From a virus (taxonomy: Duplodnaviria > Heunggongvirae > Uroviricota > Caudoviricetes), in IMG/VR virus record IMGVR_UViG_638341084_000020: a DNA stretch of 30,307 nucleotides. One strand, 5' to 3'. The position numbers were made by a program, and so were the translations under genes. Of this stretch, positions 98 through 30,307 are shown one piece after another. Below the pieces are notes generated by a model. It did no database searches. It was not told where the DNA came from and saw only the letters and a list, made by a program, of their open reading frames with translations. Within the stretch, counting starts at the first letter, position 1; each line of letters begins with the position of its first letter.

Positions 98-672
98 CTA
101 CGGTAGGGCTGGCCATTCAATATCCGGTGCAGTTGATGTATCAACACGGTTCAGCAACACCCGATACTTTTTCCAGGCTTCCAGCAACAAGGTTTCTTCC
201 TCCGTTGCGATCTCCAGATCCACAGCATCCTGAAGCGGCGCAATATGCTCACTGGCTACCTGCATCAGGCTGTTTTTTGTTTCTTCCGCCTCCCGGATCC
301 GGAACAGTTTTTCTGCTTCCGTATCCTTCACCCAGGCTGTGCCGTTCCACTTCTGATATCCCCTCCCGGCGATAACCAGGTAACATTTTCCGGTAACGGA
401 CCGAGTTCAGAAATAAATAACGCGTCGCCGGAAGCCACGTCATAAACCGTTTTACCCCGATGATCTTCAACGAGATGCCACGATGCCTCATCACTGTTGA
501 AAACAGCCACGAAGCCTGCCGGAATATCTGGCGGTGCAATATCGATACTGTTTGCTGGCAGACCTGTATGAGGCGGAATATATGCGTCACCTTCACCAAT
601 AAATTCATTAGTTCCTGCCAGCAGATTATAAATTTTTATGGTCCGTGGTTGTTCACTCATTCTGAATGCCAT
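98..672 (-). pseudogene. tfa: Tail fibre assembly protein Tfa, split by an apparent -1 frameshift (N-terminal part 328..672, C-terminal part 98..331)
   Basis: Two adjacent minus-strand ORFs in different frames (114 aa and 77 aa). Together they total about 191 aa, the usual Tfa length. The first matches the Tfa N-terminus ([24 protein letters not shown]...) up to ...LSPGG, the second matches the Tfa C-terminus (...[16 protein letters not shown]...). The reading frame changes around 355..365. Confidence 0.65.
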
Positions 673-3587
673 TATGCAAGCCTCACAATGTAGTTAAATG
701 CGATGTTTTTGACAGTGTTTTCCGCGTTACCAGCAGCGTTAACGGTGATGGTGTGTCCATGTGAGCCAATCGCAACAGAGTGCGTATGAGCACCAATACC
801 GACAGTATGTGCGTGAGCACCTGCAGATGCAGCTGTGCCGCTGACACTATGAGTGTGCGCTCCTGCAGCACTTGTATTCACACTGGCCGCAGACACTACC
901 TTATGTACTGACCCATTTTGTGACCACTGGCTGACTGCTGATGCGCCTGTGACACTATGAGTATGGTTTCCGGCACTTGCGGCTGTACCGCTCACACTGT
1001 GCGTATGCGCCCCGGTGTTATTCGTGGATTTAGTGCCGTAATCAAACGACGATGTGGTTTTCGTCCCCAAATCCGTACTGGATGCACTGGCGCTGTGGGT
1101 GTGCGATTTAATGCCGTCCTGTTCCTGAGACAATACGGCCCGACCACTGGCAGGTTTGCCCTTAATCGTCCAGCCACGCATATCAGGGATCACGCCTGAC
1201 GGATAAGCGGTTGCAAGTTTCGGGTAAGCGGATTTGTCAAAAGTCTGCCCCTGCATCAGGGCATAACCAGACGGAACGGTATCTGATGGCCACGGGATTG
1301 GTGCGCCAGGCGGATAAAACTGCTCTGATGGTGTATAGAGTGAATAAACTGTACCGTCCGTTAACCCTTCCGGCTTATTAGCAGAATATGCTGGTGACGT
1401 ATGAATAGTCACGCTGGCATTACTGGTATAATCCCATTGAATATTTACACCAGTCGCATAATTTCCGATTGCAACGTAAATATCGTAAGTATCACCAGAT
1501 GTATTGACCCAGGCAAAATTTGTAAACCCTGTCGATGTGCGCTGCCATAAAGCACCAGTAATCCCCTTCGGATTACCATTACCTGCACGCAAAACAAGTT
1601 CAGATATACCTGCCTGTTGAGGTGACCCCACGTTAAATCCCGCGCCACCAATCAACGTAATTGAAACAACAGAACTCGCCTGTGGCATGGTTACCGTTGC
1701 TAATTTGAACCAACCAGCACCACCGCTGAATGACATTGTTGTTGAGTTAAGCGTACCAATATCTTTCGGCGTCAGTGTTATATCCGCTGAAAGCGCCTTA
1801 CCATTCACCTTACGGGCAGAAGGTACCCGACCATTCGCATTATCATTAGCTGCTTTCACTGCTTTCGGTGTCGCGGCAAGCGTTTCAGATGCGCTGTTGG
1901 TTGCACTACTGAGCTGGACAATTCCTTTTTGTGCTGTCGTAGCGTCCTGAGCAGTATATTTCCCGTTAGCAAGGTCATAGGCTGCCTTTACCGACTTTGG
2001 CGTTGCCGCCAGCATTTCAGATGTGCTGTTGGTCGCGCTGCTGAGCTGAACTATCCCTTTCTGTGCTGTCGTTGCATCCTGTGCGGTGTATTTCCCGTTA
2101 GCCAGCTCATACGCGGCCTTAACGGCTTTTGGCGTTGCCGCCAGTGACTCGGAAGTGCTGTTAGTCGCACTGCTGAGCTGTACTATCCCCTTTTTCGTCG
2201 TGCTCGCATCCTCAAGCGCCACGGCGGATGCAATATCCTCTGCCCGTTTTGCCGCTGTCTCGGCGCGCGTTGCCGCGGATTCCGCCGTACTTTTGCTCTG
2301 AGCTGCCGCCGTCGCACTGCCAGCTGCCTCTGTCGCCTTCGTGGATGCCGTCGTGGCGCTGCCCTTTGCTGCTGACGCCTGTCTGGTCGCCTCATCTTTT
2401 GAAGCAGACGCAGATGATGCCGATGACGCCGCCGAACTGGCGGACGATGCGGCAGCCGTTTTTGAGGATTCTGCGCTGGTTTCCGACGCTTTCGCGTTCG
2501 TCTCGGATGTCTTCGCTGCGGAAGCAGACCTCGCTGCTGCGCTGGCCTGTTCAGTGGCTTCGCCAGCCTTCGTTGTGGCTGTTGAAGCGGACGATGCGGC
2601 GCTTTCTGCCGATTTTCCGGCAGCGGTGGCACTGGCTGAGGCCTGCCCGGCACTTGTTGACGCGGCACTGGCAGACGACGCAGCCGCTGTTTTTGAGCCT
2701 GCCGCAGCTGAGGCGCTCTGTCCCGCTGCCGTCTCAGAAGACCTGGCGTTCGTCTCGGACGTTTTTGCCGCCTTCGCGGAATTTGCTGCCGCCGTTGCCG
2801 AGGAAGCTGCGCTACTGGCGCTCGAGGATGCGTTCGTTTCTGATGATTTTGCCGCCTCTTTTGAAGCCGACGCATCCCGGGCTGAGGTGGCAGCTTCTGA
2901 CGCTTTCGTGGTCGCGGTGGATGCAGAAGTGGCGGCTGATTGTTGTGACGCTGCAGCATTCGTTTCTGACGTTTTCGCGGCAGCGGCACTGGTAGCTGCC
3001 GCGCTTTTTGAGGACTCTGCAGCGGCAGCACTTTTTTCCGCTTCAGTGGCCTTTGTTGATGCCGTTCCTGCGCTGGAAGACGCTGACTGAGCCGACGAAG
3101 CGGCCTGTCCGGCTGACGTGCTGGCTGCACGTGCTGAATCTGCAGCATCAGTCGCATGGGTTGCCGCCTCACGGGCAGATGTGCCGGCATCACTGGCTGA
3201 CTTCTTCGCGGCTGCCGTGTTCTGTGCCACCACGGACGCGTTACGCGCCACCTCTTCCACCATCTGTTCAAAACGGCGCAGTGCCTCCGGACGGGCATCA
3301 TCCTCCGTCATGGCACCGAGAAAATCATTCAGCGTACCGGGTTGAGAATCTTCATACACGGTGATGGTCCCGGCATGTGACGGCGGGAATCCTTCCACCA
3401 ACAGAATAACGCTGTACTGCCCGTACTCAACGTCCATGCTGTAACGCCCGGCTTCATCCGGATTTTCTGAGGCCAGCGTGTTCACCACCACCGTGGTGCT
3501 GTTACGTTTTGCTTTCAGCTGGATTGTGCAGTTCTGTACCGGTTTTCCTGTGCCGTCTTTCAGTACACCTGAAATCTTTACTGCCAT
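672..3587 (-). CDS. stf: Side tail fibre protein Stf (972 aa from the ATG at 3587; track ORF begins 2 codons earlier at a GTG)
   Basis: N-terminus [26 protein letters not shown] and C-terminus ...[29 protein letters not shown] match lambda Stf as I recall it. Internal Ala/Ser-rich region, 44-aa tandem repeats and a His-rich GAHTHS repeat region near the C-terminus. GGGG-type ribosome-binding site precedes the ATG. Confidence 0.85.
1848..2192 (-). repeat. About 2.6 tandem copies of a 132-bp in-frame coding repeat inside stf (44-aa unit [44 protein letters not shown])
   Basis: Repeat copies begin at Stf track residues 468, 512 and 556 (period 44 aa = 132 bp); the third copy diverges after about 27 residues. 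Visible at DNA level as a near-identical 132-nt periodicity. Confidence 0.85.
2244..3221 (-). repeat. Low-complexity Ala/Ser/Thr-rich coding region of stf with reiterated short motifs ([19 protein letters not shown] and similar)
   Basis: Stf residues about 125-450 consist almost entirely of A, S, T, K, E, Q, G. The GC-rich DNA produces long spurious ORFs on both strands here. Confidence 0.7.
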
Positions 3588-4317: not shown

Positions 4318-7719
<3,402 letters not shown>

Positions 7720-16037: not shown

Positions 16038-17099
16038 TTACGCCAGTTGTACGGACACGAACTCATCAGGGTCAGCCAGCAGCATCAGCGGTGCTGACTG
16101 AATCATGGTGAACTCACGCGCCGGATCGCCGGTGGTCACCCAGTTTTTCGGGTAACGGGCAGAGGCGTTAATGCCTTCGCGCTGTGCGTCCGCATCCTGA
16201 ATGCAGCCATAGGTGCGCAGACCGCGTGCCTGAGTGTTCCCCAGCACCATCGTGTTGTCCGGCAGGAAGTTCTTTTTGACGCCGTTTTCCACGTACTGTC
16301 CGGAATACACGACGATGGCCACATCGCCATACATCCCCTTATAGGACACCGCTTTACCTAGGTCTTTCACCGCTGTCTCCAGCTCGGAATTAGAGCCACG
16401 ACGGGTATCCAGCTTCTCCTTGACGGCTTTGAAGGAACGGAACAGCGCCCAGCCTTTCGGATCGAACACGATGATATTCACCACACCGCTGGCGTTCAGC
16501 GCGTAGGCTTCGATATCGTCGGTCGGGTCATACGTGGACTTGTCACGCTTGCTCCACTCCGTGCCGCCGGACTGCGTGATGTTATTCTCCTCACTGCGGC
16601 CCATATCCACCTCAACCGGATCGAAGGCTTCACCGGTCATGGTGTATTTGCCCTTAAGCACGGCAGAAACTGCCTGCATCTCTTCGACCTGAGCAATGGC
16701 CAGCTCTTCGTCACGCATGTTCTGCATGATGATGCGACGGCGGCGGTAAGCCGGGTCCGCCAGATTCTGCGGATCTTCATCCGGCAGGCGACGCAGGGTC
16801 ATCTGCGGATCTTCATCCGGCAGGCGACGCAGGGTCATCTGCGGATTCACTTCATGCTTCGGCTTGACATATCCCGGCGTAAATTCAGAGGTGGAGCCGC
16901 CACGGGAACGGATAACCTCACCGGAAACAATCGGCGAAACGTACAGCGCCATGTTTACCAGTCCCGGAATTTGTGAGAGATAGACTTTCTCCGTGGTGAA
17001 GGGATAGCTCTCACGGAAAAAGAGACGCAGAAACAGCGGATCAAACTTAAATTTCTGCTCATTTGCCGCCAGCAGTTGGGCGGTTGTGTACATCGACAT
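16038..17099 (-). CDS. E: Major capsid protein E, 353 aa, carrying an in-frame 12-aa tandem duplication relative to lambda E (341 aa)
   Basis: MSMYTTAQLLAANEQKFKFDPLFLRLFFRESYPFTTEKVYLSQIPGLVNMALYVSPIVSGEV... matches lambda E throughout, except that MTLRRLPDEDPQ occurs twice in tandem. Confidence 0.92.
   Translation of the reverse strand: MSMYTTAQLLAANEQKFKFDPLFLRLFFRESYPFTTEKVYLSQIPGLVNMALYVSPIVSGEVIRSRGGSTSEFTPGYVKPKHEVNPQMTLRRLPDEDPQMTLRRLPDEDPQNLADPAYRRRRIIMQNMRDEELAIAQVEEMQAVSAVLKGKYTMTGEAFDPVEVDMGRSEENNITQSGGTEWSKRDKSTYDPTDDIEAYALNASGVVNIIVFDPKGWALFRSFKAVKEKLDTRRGSNSELETAVKDLGKAVSYKGMYGDVAIVVYSGQYVENGVKKNFLPDNTMVLGNTQARGLRTYGCIQDADAQREGINASARYPKNWVTTGDPAREFTMIQSAPLMLLADPDEFVSVQLA
16767..16838 (-). 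repeat. Perfect 36-bp direct tandem duplication inside E (encodes MTLRRLPDEDPQ twice)
   Basis: Two identical adjacent 36-nt units (plus-strand unit ctgcggatcttcatccggcaggcgacgcagggtcat) corresponding to E track residues 97-108 and 109-120. Confidence 0.9.
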
Positions 17100-27067: not shown

Positions 27068-28165
27068 ATGAAAAAATTAACAGTGGCAATTTCTGCTGTA
27101 GCTGCATCAGTACTGATGGCGATGTCTGCTCAGGCAGCTGAAATTTATAATAAAGACAGTAACAAGCTGGATCTGTACGGGAAAGTTAATGCCAAGCACT
27201 ACTTTTCCTCTAACGATGCAGATGATGGTGATACTACTTATGTTCGTCTGGGCTTCAAAGGCGAAACCCAAATCAACGATCAGCTGACTGGTTTCGGTCA
27301 GTGGGAATATGAATTCAAAGGCAACCGCGCTGAATCTCAAGGTTCCTCCAAAGACAAAACCCGTCTTGCATTTGCAGGCCTGAAATTCGGTGACTACGGC
27401 TCAATCGATTACGGCCGTAACTACGGTGTAGCATACGACATCGGTGCGTGGACTGACGTTCTGCCAGAATTCGGTGGCGATACCTGGACCCAAACAGATG
27501 TGTTCATGACTGGTCGCACCACTGGTGTTGCAACCTATCGTAACAACGACTTCTTTGGTCTGGTTGATGGTCTGAACTTTGCTGCTCAGTACCAAGGCAA
27601 AAACGATCGTAGCGATTTCGATAACTACACCGAAGGTAACGGTGATGGCTTCGGTTTCTCTGCTACCTATGAATACGAAGGATTCGGTATCGGTGCAACT
27701 TATGCGAAATCTGATCGTACCGACACTCAAGTTAATGCAGGGAAAGTTCTTCCTGAAGTATTTGCTTCCGGTAAAAATGCAGAAGTTTGGGCCGCAGGTC
27801 TGAAATATGACGCTAACAACATTTACCTGGCCACTACCTATTCTGAAACCCAGAATATGACTGTATTTGCTGATCACTTCGTTGCTAATAAAGCTCAAAA
27901 CTTCGAAGCTGTTGCACAATATCAGTTCGATTTCGGTCTGCGTCCGTCCGTTGCTTACCTGCAATCTAAAGGTAAGGATCTTGGAGTATGGGGCGATCAG
28001 GACTTAGTCAAATATGTTGATGTAGGTGCAACCTATTACTTCAACAAAAATATGTCTACTTTCGTTGATTACAAAATCAACCTGCTTGACAAAAATGACT
28101 TCACTAAAGCACTCGGTGTAAGCACTGATGACATCGTTGCTGTAGGTCTGGTTTACCAGTTCTAA
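27068..28165 (+). CDS. nmpC: Prophage-encoded general porin (OmpC/OmpF/PhoE superfamily; NmpC/Lc type), 365 aa, intact
   Basis: Signal peptide [23 protein letters not shown], then [24 protein letters not shown]...; C-terminal ...VAVGLVYQF (terminal Phe) typical of 16-strand porins; AAGGG ribosome-binding site; sits between Q and S on the opposite strand, as nmpC does in DLP12 and lc in PA-2. Gene symbol is by analogy and not certain. Confidence 0.85.
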
Positions 28166-28354: not shown

Positions 28355-28738
28355 TTAATTAGAGTTATTAACAACGATATCCATCTCTAATCGGATATCT
28401 AATGCCATTAACATCCCTTCAATTATGCCCTCAGCCTTCTGTAACCTTTTCCCGATATAACCATCAGAGCAGCAATGCTTACCTGCCAGTGACATGAATG
28501 TCATACCGACTACATAATAATCTACTAATAAATCGTGCAAATCGCTGTTGTTCTTTTTCAGACGGGCCATGCACCCGCAAATAATCATCGCGTCATCGTC
28601 ACAACATTGCGGGCGAGATTTTACTTTTGAAGGAATTAATCCCTTAAAACCGGCGGCAATGGACGACCAGGTCACATCTTCATGATTATTAGCCACCCAC
28701 GCTCCCCAACGTTCAAGAACCATCTGAATATCACGCAT
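28355..28738 (-). CDS. Q: Late-gene antitermination protein Q (phage-82 / DLP12 QuuD type), 127 aa
   Basis: [62 protein letters not shown]... matches the 127-aa DLP12 QuuD as recalled; Cys-rich zinc-binding region. Track ORF starts 5 codons upstream (28753). Confidence 0.85.
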
Positions 28739-28755: not shown

Positions 28756-29751
28756 TCAGGCCAGCACACCAATCGCCAGTGCGCGATCGATAAAACGAAA
28801 TATCAGCTCCAGCTGGGAGCCATACTTCTCTTCAAATGCCACGGTATCCGCATGCAGTTCGTCGTGGTGTTTTCTGCACAAAGGCAGCACAAAAAGGTCA
28901 TGCGCTTTTGTACCCATTCCACCCTGACCATGGCCTATCAGATGATGCGGATCATCAGCTGGCTTTCCACAACATGCACACGGCTGTGTCTTAACCCTGC
29001 GCGTGTACTTTTCATTAACCCAGCGGCGACGTTTTGGGCGTAACATAAAAGACTCCGGCGACTCCGGATCCACTTTCAGCGCCAGCACCTTTTTCGCCTT
29101 ATCCTGGATGATGCTGGTGGCAGGAACCGAAGGCACAAGGTCACTTTCCCGGGTAACAGACGGCACAACAGGCTTCGGTAATCTCAGTGCCTTACGGGCT
29201 GCACTTTCCGGTAAGGCATCCGCCAGATCATTACGAATCAGCCACCAGCACAGTTCCGGCATTGTCACAACGTGACTGTCATCAAAACCGAGATCCCGAC
29301 GCACAACAGACAACACCCAGCGGGCACAGTTATCCGTTGCCATTGATTCCAGCCGTTCCGTGAACTGATCGCGCAGCTGGTTATCGCAGTGCCAGCACAG
29401 ACGGATTGCACCCGGAGCGTGTCGCATTGTGGTCATGTTCTCGCTGTGCCAGTCGGAATGAGGCCACTGGCAGCCTTTTTCACGAAGTAACCAGCTTTCA
29501 AGACATTCCACGCCACCAGCACGACGGATCACTGCCTCATTGCGGAACACGGCCCGAACGGCAGGATCATCCGCCAGCGGTTGTGATGCCGCCGGAACGG
29601 CACCACTGGCGAAAGATGAATAACGCTCCGGCTCAGGCTCCAGCAGGACACGCCCCTGCATAAACAGGGGCATCAGCTCTGAACCTGGCCTGAACAATAC
29701 GATCCCCATACGCGGGGCAATTTCAGGGGTCAGTAGTGCTCTCACGGTCAC
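28756..29751 (-). CDS. Cys/His-rich prophage protein, 331 aa (probably DUF968 / YdfU-like)
   Basis: Sits immediately upstream of Q as ydfU does upstream of quuQ in Qin; C-terminal [43 protein letters not shown] and an internal CWHCDNQ suggest metal-binding, possibly HNH-like; family assignment is from memory only. Confidence 0.55.
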
Positions 29752-29752
29752 C

Positions 29753-30307
29753 TCAATGAACGGTATCGAGCAGCTTTAACAGCTCAGGGAATCGGGATTC
29801 GAAGAAATGCGGCTGTGTCTCGCGCGGATTTGCGGGACTGGTGATGTTCTTGCCGAACATGCAACCTTTCGCTGTCAGCGACCAGAATTTTTTGATGTTG
29901 TTAATCGCTGTACGGCTGTATCGTTCGCGCTGCTCGACGATCCCCAGTTTCACCATCTAGTGATATGCCTGATTAGCCGTCAGGCGTATACCATACTGTT
30001 TCAGCAGTGCACTCAGTGACAGTGTCGGGCGACTTGAGCCATCGTGTGCATCAGCAGGAGCATCAATGGCATAGCGCGGTGCCAGATTCGGTAAGCCAAC
30101 AGCCTCCTGGAGTTTCTGACAGGCACCAAGCACTGAAGAGTTAGACAGGTTTAACTCCCGGCGCATAAAGTCCAGCAGGATCACGCCAGCCTGCATCTTG
30201 TCAGCAGCCTGTCCGGATAATTTTTCCGGTGCGCTGGTTACCATATCGAAAGTACGGATCACCTTCAGATGGAATGACGGGCTGATCCACATTGCATAGG
30301 CATACAC
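29753..30307 (-). pseudogene. Putative antirepressor-type regulatory protein (KilAC/Ant-like C-terminal region), 5' end outside the window, interrupted by a single in-frame TAG at 29957..29959
   Basis: ORFs 29957..30307 and 29753..29956 are in the same frame and separated only by one TAG; the downstream ORF begins at the ATG directly after the stop with no convincing ribosome-binding site; ...LLKQYGIRLTANQAYH * MVKLGIVEQRERYSRTAINNIKKFWSLTAKG reads like one continuous domain. Confidence 0.4.

Follow-up and report, generated by a model that had tools for sequence, protein, structure and literature searches.

A premature amber codon interrupts a KilA-N domain gene in one Escherichia coli prophage lineage

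Are two adjacent open reading frames (ORFs) separated by a single amber codon two small genes, or one gene cut in two? The question arises at one end of the 30,307-nucleotide stretch of DNA analyzed here (hereafter, the window), whose minus strand reads ...AAT CAG GCA TAT CAC TAG ATG GTG AAA CTG... The TAG (29957..29959, minus strand) is in frame with both ORFs, and the ATG of the second ORF adjoins it directly (TAGATG). Upstream of the stop, 29960..30307 (minus strand) holds 116 sense codons, which are codons 86 to 201 of a KilA-N domain gene that is cut by the window end. Downstream, 29753..29956 (minus strand) holds the last 67 codons of the same gene, including the ATG of its native Met204 and its native TGA (29753..29755). 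The sole Shine-Dalgarno-like element 5' of the 67-codon ORF is an AGG at -14 to -12, which is short and too distant to make a convincing ribosome-binding site. A first-pass annotation of the window had described two minus-strand ORFs in one frame, a lone TAG between them, and a second ORF poorly equipped for initiation; the sequence and translations agree with it on each count, and its coordinates were exact.

Together, the two ORFs make up the 3' two-thirds of an 810-nt gene of 269 codons, the first 85 of which lie beyond position 30307. The full-length sequence was therefore taken from a 100%-identical record (NZ_CP066032.1, locus I6I16_RS24920). The full-length protein belongs to Pfam KilA-N (PF04383), with 79.2 bits over residues 7-109 against a gathering score of 23.8 bits; in the window, the first 24 residues are the end of this domain and score 21.1-21.9 bits, just under the cut-off. 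PHROG 129, a 'transcriptional regulator' family, was matched over the full length, and the 67-residue segment matched both phrog_6486 and the C-terminal end of phrog_129. Pfam searches of the joined and full-length proteins at E-values up to 1 returned nothing besides KilA-N, and NCBIfam gave no match to the full-length protein. Searching the joined translation against the KilAC, Ant, Rha and Bro families, as the first-pass annotation had proposed, gave no Pfam match to any of them (KilAC/ANT, PF03374; Bro-N, PF02498; Rha, PF09669). PADLOC made no defence-system assignment, its one weak match being PDC-S22 (22 bits) over residues 72-108 in the KilA-N core. A sequence search of the PDB with the family profile returned chance-level matches only (E-value of at least 0.03), and the literature searched yielded no functional study of this KilA-N protein family, the mEp460 and cdtI phage proteins included.

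To count as a functional antirepressor, a phage protein must bind and inactivate the repressor of the prophage while being under repression itself, for example by LexA. The earlier designation of the gene as a putative antirepressor stands in part: it encodes a KilA-N protein, and the word antirepressor reaches that protein by way of annotations given to distant homologues, not through a KilAC/ANT, Bro-N or Rha match. Judged by sequence, the term would be an annotation-level label only, borrowed from proteins that share the C-terminal module. A DNA-binding or regulatory role for the intact protein is putative.

If the TAG marked a natural gene boundary, homologues should end or begin there. 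All 27 close homologues (69-97% identity), drawn from genera that include Escherichia, Salmonella, Citrobacter, Enterobacter and Leclercia, read through the position, where they have mostly Q and at times M, K or L. Forty-nine of the last 67 positions are invariant among these 27, and the longest invariant stretch in the last 67 residues of the family is GKNITSP.NPRETQPHFFES; the most conserved block of the family, FWSLTAKGCMFGKNITSPANPRETQPHFFES, sits within the severed 67 codons. The Met204 codon is ATG in 9/9 aligned sequences. Four of four distant homologues, whose N-termini are Bro-N, Rha or unassigned, are likewise uninterrupted ORFs at the equivalent position. When the 67-residue ORF was searched with phmmer against 1.84 billion representative proteins, 633 matches were obtained. 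The best 150 of these were inspected, and 143 have residues upstream of the Met (at least 45 in 123 of them and at least 150 in 90), so that the segment is the C-terminal end of a longer protein in each of the 143. The joined translation had been said to read as one continuous domain, and these homologues, near and distant, agree with that statement, as does the AlphaFold model described below. A natural boundary between two proteins, which the first-pass annotation had named as one observation that would speak against it, was not found; the homologues examined were contiguous.

Among the best 150 representatives, the exceptions, whose first residue lies at the beginning of the segment or within it, have lengths of 51-87 residues. 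Three were read: one is an E. coli remnant whose tail is altered (P0177), one is corrupted by a frameshift (P0191) and one is a short fragment (P0204). In the best 150, just two begin within two residues of the Met, a remnant from E. coli and a partial match. We also considered whether phrog_6486 (78 residues, corresponding to residues 192-269) represents a natural small gene, and rejected this. The short representatives mostly start 3-44 residues upstream of the Met, and the four E. coli-like ones that were read are remnants or corrupted fragments. A distant protein of 76 residues (P0200), whose start lies about 13 residues before the Met, may exist as a stand-alone form.

The 67-residue ORF is recorded on 169 contigs, and was likewise considered as an independent gene and rejected, since most of its contexts carry other lesions and retain CAG. 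Ten contexts were examined, and in 7/10 the KilA-N gene keeps CAG and is damaged elsewhere, by 5' deletions or recombination junctions or by 1-bp indels, some of which may be long-read assembly errors. These seven contexts show that the KilA-N gene is lost repeatedly in prophages, with frameshift and deletion alleles that are independent of the TAG. At four loci of other prophages (L005, L007, L009 and L013; positions ~1360..1500 of each), unrelated genes (HTH_36, Phage_ASH/pRha and DUF2303) have taken the place of its 5' part, with junctions that differ, and C-terminal remnants are left next to DUF968. Breakpoints of mosaic recombination therefore fall inside the KilA-N gene.

The allele itself was compared with intact genes. 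In strain SF-166 (WP_001061411.1), the alignment has CAG, encoding Gln203 of the 269-residue protein, where the window has TAG, a difference of a single C-to-T transition; seven other loci also have CAG. With the glutamine restored, the protein is 100% identical to the proteins of phages mEp460 and cdtI, and at least 1,000 contigs encode exactly this sequence, as compared with 28 for the exact 201-residue truncated product. Allele counts were obtained from 5,426 complete E. coli genomes using 30-mers spanning the codon, with an exact match across it forced. Two TAG 30-mers each matched 2 of the 5,426 genomes, the same two in both cases (FDAARGOS_1059 and 12A, which carry the same prophage), and a third TAG 30-mer with flanks of the SF-166 type had no matches among them. 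The CAG 30-mer matched 1,604 genomes in 1,975 places. The TAG also occurs in three independent draft assemblies, whose identity to the window across 2 kb is 99.9% or higher. Because all TAG loci show at least this identity, they represent one prophage lineage. As read from these sequences, the stop is real, derived, recent and confined to that lineage.

The mutation is already known to public annotation. In both complete TAG genomes, the Prokaryotic Genome Annotation Pipeline (PGAP) gives the gene pseudogene status, under the label 'KilA-N domain-containing protein, internal stop'. Our comparisons lead to the same designation: the in-frame stop lies in an ORF that is contiguous in homologues, near-identical alleles have a sense codon at the position, and the stop allele is rare and derived.

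The window corresponds to the late half of a lambdoid prophage, and its genes lie mostly on the minus strand. Its content runs through tail fibre, J, tape measure, capsid, portal, terminase and lysis genes, followed by a plus-strand porin gene and Q. A 608-base query across the site matched 2,373 of the 5,426 complete E. coli genomes. In FDAARGOS_1059 and 12A, the prophage is integrated at the argU tRNA site, and the local gene order in both is Dam methylase, LexA-family regulator, RusA, KilA-N, DUF968, QuuD, porin and EssD/RrrD/RzpD. The downstream neighbour of the KilA-N gene, in the same transcription unit, is a DUF968/HNH-like gene (28756..29745, minus strand; Pfam DUF968, 264.9 bits; a CDS in PGAP), and next downstream is the quuD-like late-gene antiterminator Q (28355..28738, minus strand; Pfam Phage_antitermQ, 180.5 bits; quuD in PGAP). 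This position of Q places the KilA-N gene in the region equivalent to nin of lambda. The lambda nin region is dispensable for lytic growth. By analogy of position, between a Holliday-junction resolvase gene and Q, we infer that the KilA-N gene would be dispensable as well. Rho-dependent polarity of the nonsense codon on DUF968 and Q is possible.

Several other features of the prophage were recorded. Between Q and the lysis genes lies a gene for a 365-residue porin (27068..28165, plus strand), in the moron position occupied by nmpC in DLP12; the porin protein accession differs between FDAARGOS_1059 and 12A. The prophage further carries bor and a lom/ail-like gene. Within the major capsid gene, which is lambda gpE-like and lies on the minus strand, there is a perfect 36-bp tandem duplication at 16775..16846 (copies 16775-16810 and 16811-16846), yielding an in-frame 12-residue repeat in which PQMTLRRLPDED occurs twice; the FDAARGOS_1059 prophage has a single copy. 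At 132..330 (minus strand), the full Rfam IS009 model (RF02111) is matched at 224 bits, overlapping the region of the tail-fibre assembly gene (~98..672); in the near-identical record, PGAP calls this gene frameshifted.

The prophage bears lesions besides the TAG. In FDAARGOS_1059, the integrase gene is split by IS679, and the tail-fibre assembly gene and a small early ORF are frameshifted. The 12A prophage shares the TAG and the early-ORF frameshift, and has an intact integrase gene (intD) and a full set of structural genes. The TAG is present in both strains and the integrase is split in one only, and the nonsense mutation is therefore older than the IS insertion. With its intact integrase and complete structural genes, the 12A prophage appears only mildly decayed. 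The integrase split by IS679, an IS66-family element, occupies 43513..47388 of the FDAARGOS_1059 locus (L003), outside the window, and the intact intD occupies 5571..6734 of the 12A locus (L004).

We consider it highly probable that a dispensable prophage gene, for a regulator or DNA-binding protein, has simply lost its function through a nonsense mutation, the 67-codon ORF being the orphaned tail of the gene. A single C-to-T transition converted the Gln203 codon from CAG to amber TAG in a nin-equivalent accessory gene (in the order rusA, KilA-N, DUF968, Q). Translation would stop after residue 201 or 202, giving a product that retains the N-terminal KilA-N DNA-binding domain and a helical middle segment, and that loses the second half of the C-terminal domain together with the most conserved block of the family. 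The 67-codon ORF would be the severed tail, its ATG being the native Met204 codon with no ribosome-binding site of its own. The mutation is recent and confined to one prophage lineage that is accumulating other lesions, and would amount to ordinary decay of a dispensable gene.

What the truncation removes was judged from the AlphaFold model for an intact homologue with 98% identity (mean pLDDT of 75). The model predicts the KilA-N domain at residues 1-110, two long helices at 117-155, a disordered linker at 161-177 and a compact C-terminal domain at 180-264, in which the residues around 181-210 have a pLDDT of about 87. Q203 falls within a helix of the C-terminal domain (196-205). A Foldseek search of the PDB with the full model found nothing at E-values of 0.001 or below; the top match, which was not significant, was the APSES domain of Mbp1, and this is consistent with the KilA-N identity. 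Loss of the most conserved 67 residues, with truncation inside a predicted helix, points to loss of function, and the full-length function has most probably been lost. The first-pass annotation had offered a nonsense-inactivated regulator in a decaying prophage as one of two readings. That reading is supported by the intact CAG allele, by the counts of 2 versus 1,604 genomes, by the PGAP pseudogene call and by the further lesions.

Four alternatives to a loss-of-function mutation were weighed. It is improbable that the truncated 201-residue KilA-N protein is a functional, selected product, such as an altered or dominant-negative regulator that keeps the prophage quiescent. The KilA-N domain (7-109) and the helical segment (117-155) are untouched in this product and could keep some activity, and the TAG allele persists in several isolates of the lineage. 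However, the carriers are all near-identical, at 99.9% or above, so that clonal descent explains the persistence and there is no signal of selection. The C-terminal block that would be missing is, moreover, the most conserved part of the family, and only 2 of the 5,426 complete genomes have the allele.

Very improbable is a working split gene, in which ribosomes that end at the UAG reinitiate at the adjacent AUG and the fragments reassemble into a functional protein. The TAGATG adjacency is a geometry compatible with translational coupling, and some termination-reinitiation could occur. The ATG, though, is the ancestral Met204 codon, as the 9/9 aligned sequences attest, and the adjacency of stop and start is therefore accidental. 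The ATG also has no usable Shine-Dalgarno sequence, the split cuts through a predicted helix within a compact domain, and the best 150 representatives contain just the two entries noted above that begin within two residues of the site. Taking reinitiation at UAG-AUG and the lone KilA-N fragment together, there is a slim chance that the lineage has a naturally split or shortened regulator of altered activity, with an effect such as damped prophage induction.

Function through amber suppression or programmed read-through, the other reading in the first-pass annotation, is extremely improbable, and it found no support here. A suppressor of the supE type would restore the native glutamine exactly, and such alleles do occur in E. 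coli: the supE-type glnV allele (anticodon CTA) was present in 157 of the 5,426 genomes, as compared with 5,424 for a wild-type control 32-mer. Among the 30 matches listed, however, all were laboratory derivatives of K-12. Strong amber suppressors are rare in natural isolates. ARAGORN predicted no tRNA in the window, and in the whole prophage of FDAARGOS_1059 it predicted only the argU tRNA-Arg(tct) and no suppressor tRNA. The host check covered glnV/glnX in this TAG-carrying strain. Its four tRNA-Gln genes have anticodons ttg, ttg, ctg and ctg; both tRNA-Gln(CUG) genes, glnV and glnX, are wild type, and FDAARGOS_1059 therefore has no supE. The rarity and derived state of the TAG also argue against a conserved feature of the gene. 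Finally, a sequencing or assembly error, which a single-base difference from a very common allele might suggest, can be set aside, because two complete genomes and three drafts from different projects have the same base and the truncated product is on 28 contigs.

Read as a loss-of-function mutation, the amber codon matters little beyond annotation: the two ORFs of the window are one pseudogene and not two genes. The TAG marks one E. coli prophage lineage, that of O111:H2 strain 12A and its relatives, which has probably lost the function of an accessory gene located upstream of Q. A mildly useful by-product is the recognition of a widespread C-terminal module that is combined with KilA-N, Bro-N or Rha and has no Pfam family of its own. 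In the window, this module corresponds to 29753..30170 (minus strand; residues ~125-269), and it is common to proteins with these N-termini in phages of Proteobacteria and Firmicutes; solved structures gave no significant match to it.

The closest known counterparts are the PGAP pseudogenes I6I16_RS24920 of E. coli FDAARGOS_1059 (NZ_CP066032.1) and KP529_RS20180 of E. coli O111:H2 12A (NZ_CP077479.1), which are the same gene with the same TAG in the same argU prophage. The window is 99.96-99.98% identical to the two (over ~30 kb for FDAARGOS_1059 and ~16 kb compared for 12A), and it derives from a third, closely related genome, with about 10 substitutions relative to FDAARGOS_1059 and the extra 36-bp duplication in the capsid gene. 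Phages mEp460 (JQ182728.1) and cdtI (orf50, NC_009514.1) have the sense codon and an uninterrupted ORF of 269 residues, whereas the gene in the window is interrupted.

KilA of phage P1 is the founder of the KilA-N domain (PF04383). The N-terminal domain of the present protein is about 40% identical to it over residues 4-105, where the match ends; the C-terminal part is unrelated, and has no ANT/KilAC match in Pfam. BstA, a prophage-encoded abortive-infection defence protein, also has a KilA-N-like domain (PMC8585504). Our protein differs in that PADLOC found no match to BstA, and its gene lies in the region upstream of Q.

The C-terminal half has its relatives elsewhere. Pseudomonas phage F10 'Ant', Rha of phage Medea1 and gp25 of a Ruminococcus phage share the module (residues ~125-269) at 26-40% identity, and they have in common with the KilA-N protein the motif F(W/K)SLT.KG..GKN..SP.N.RE..PH. 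The N-terminal domains differ, being Bro-N in F10 'Ant', Phage_pRha in Medea1 Rha and Ruminococcus gp25, and KilA-N here. For the shared module, the antirepressor activity of proteins of the F10 'Ant' type is a matter of annotation. Paenibacillus phage Pagassa has the same C-terminal module behind an unassigned N-terminus.
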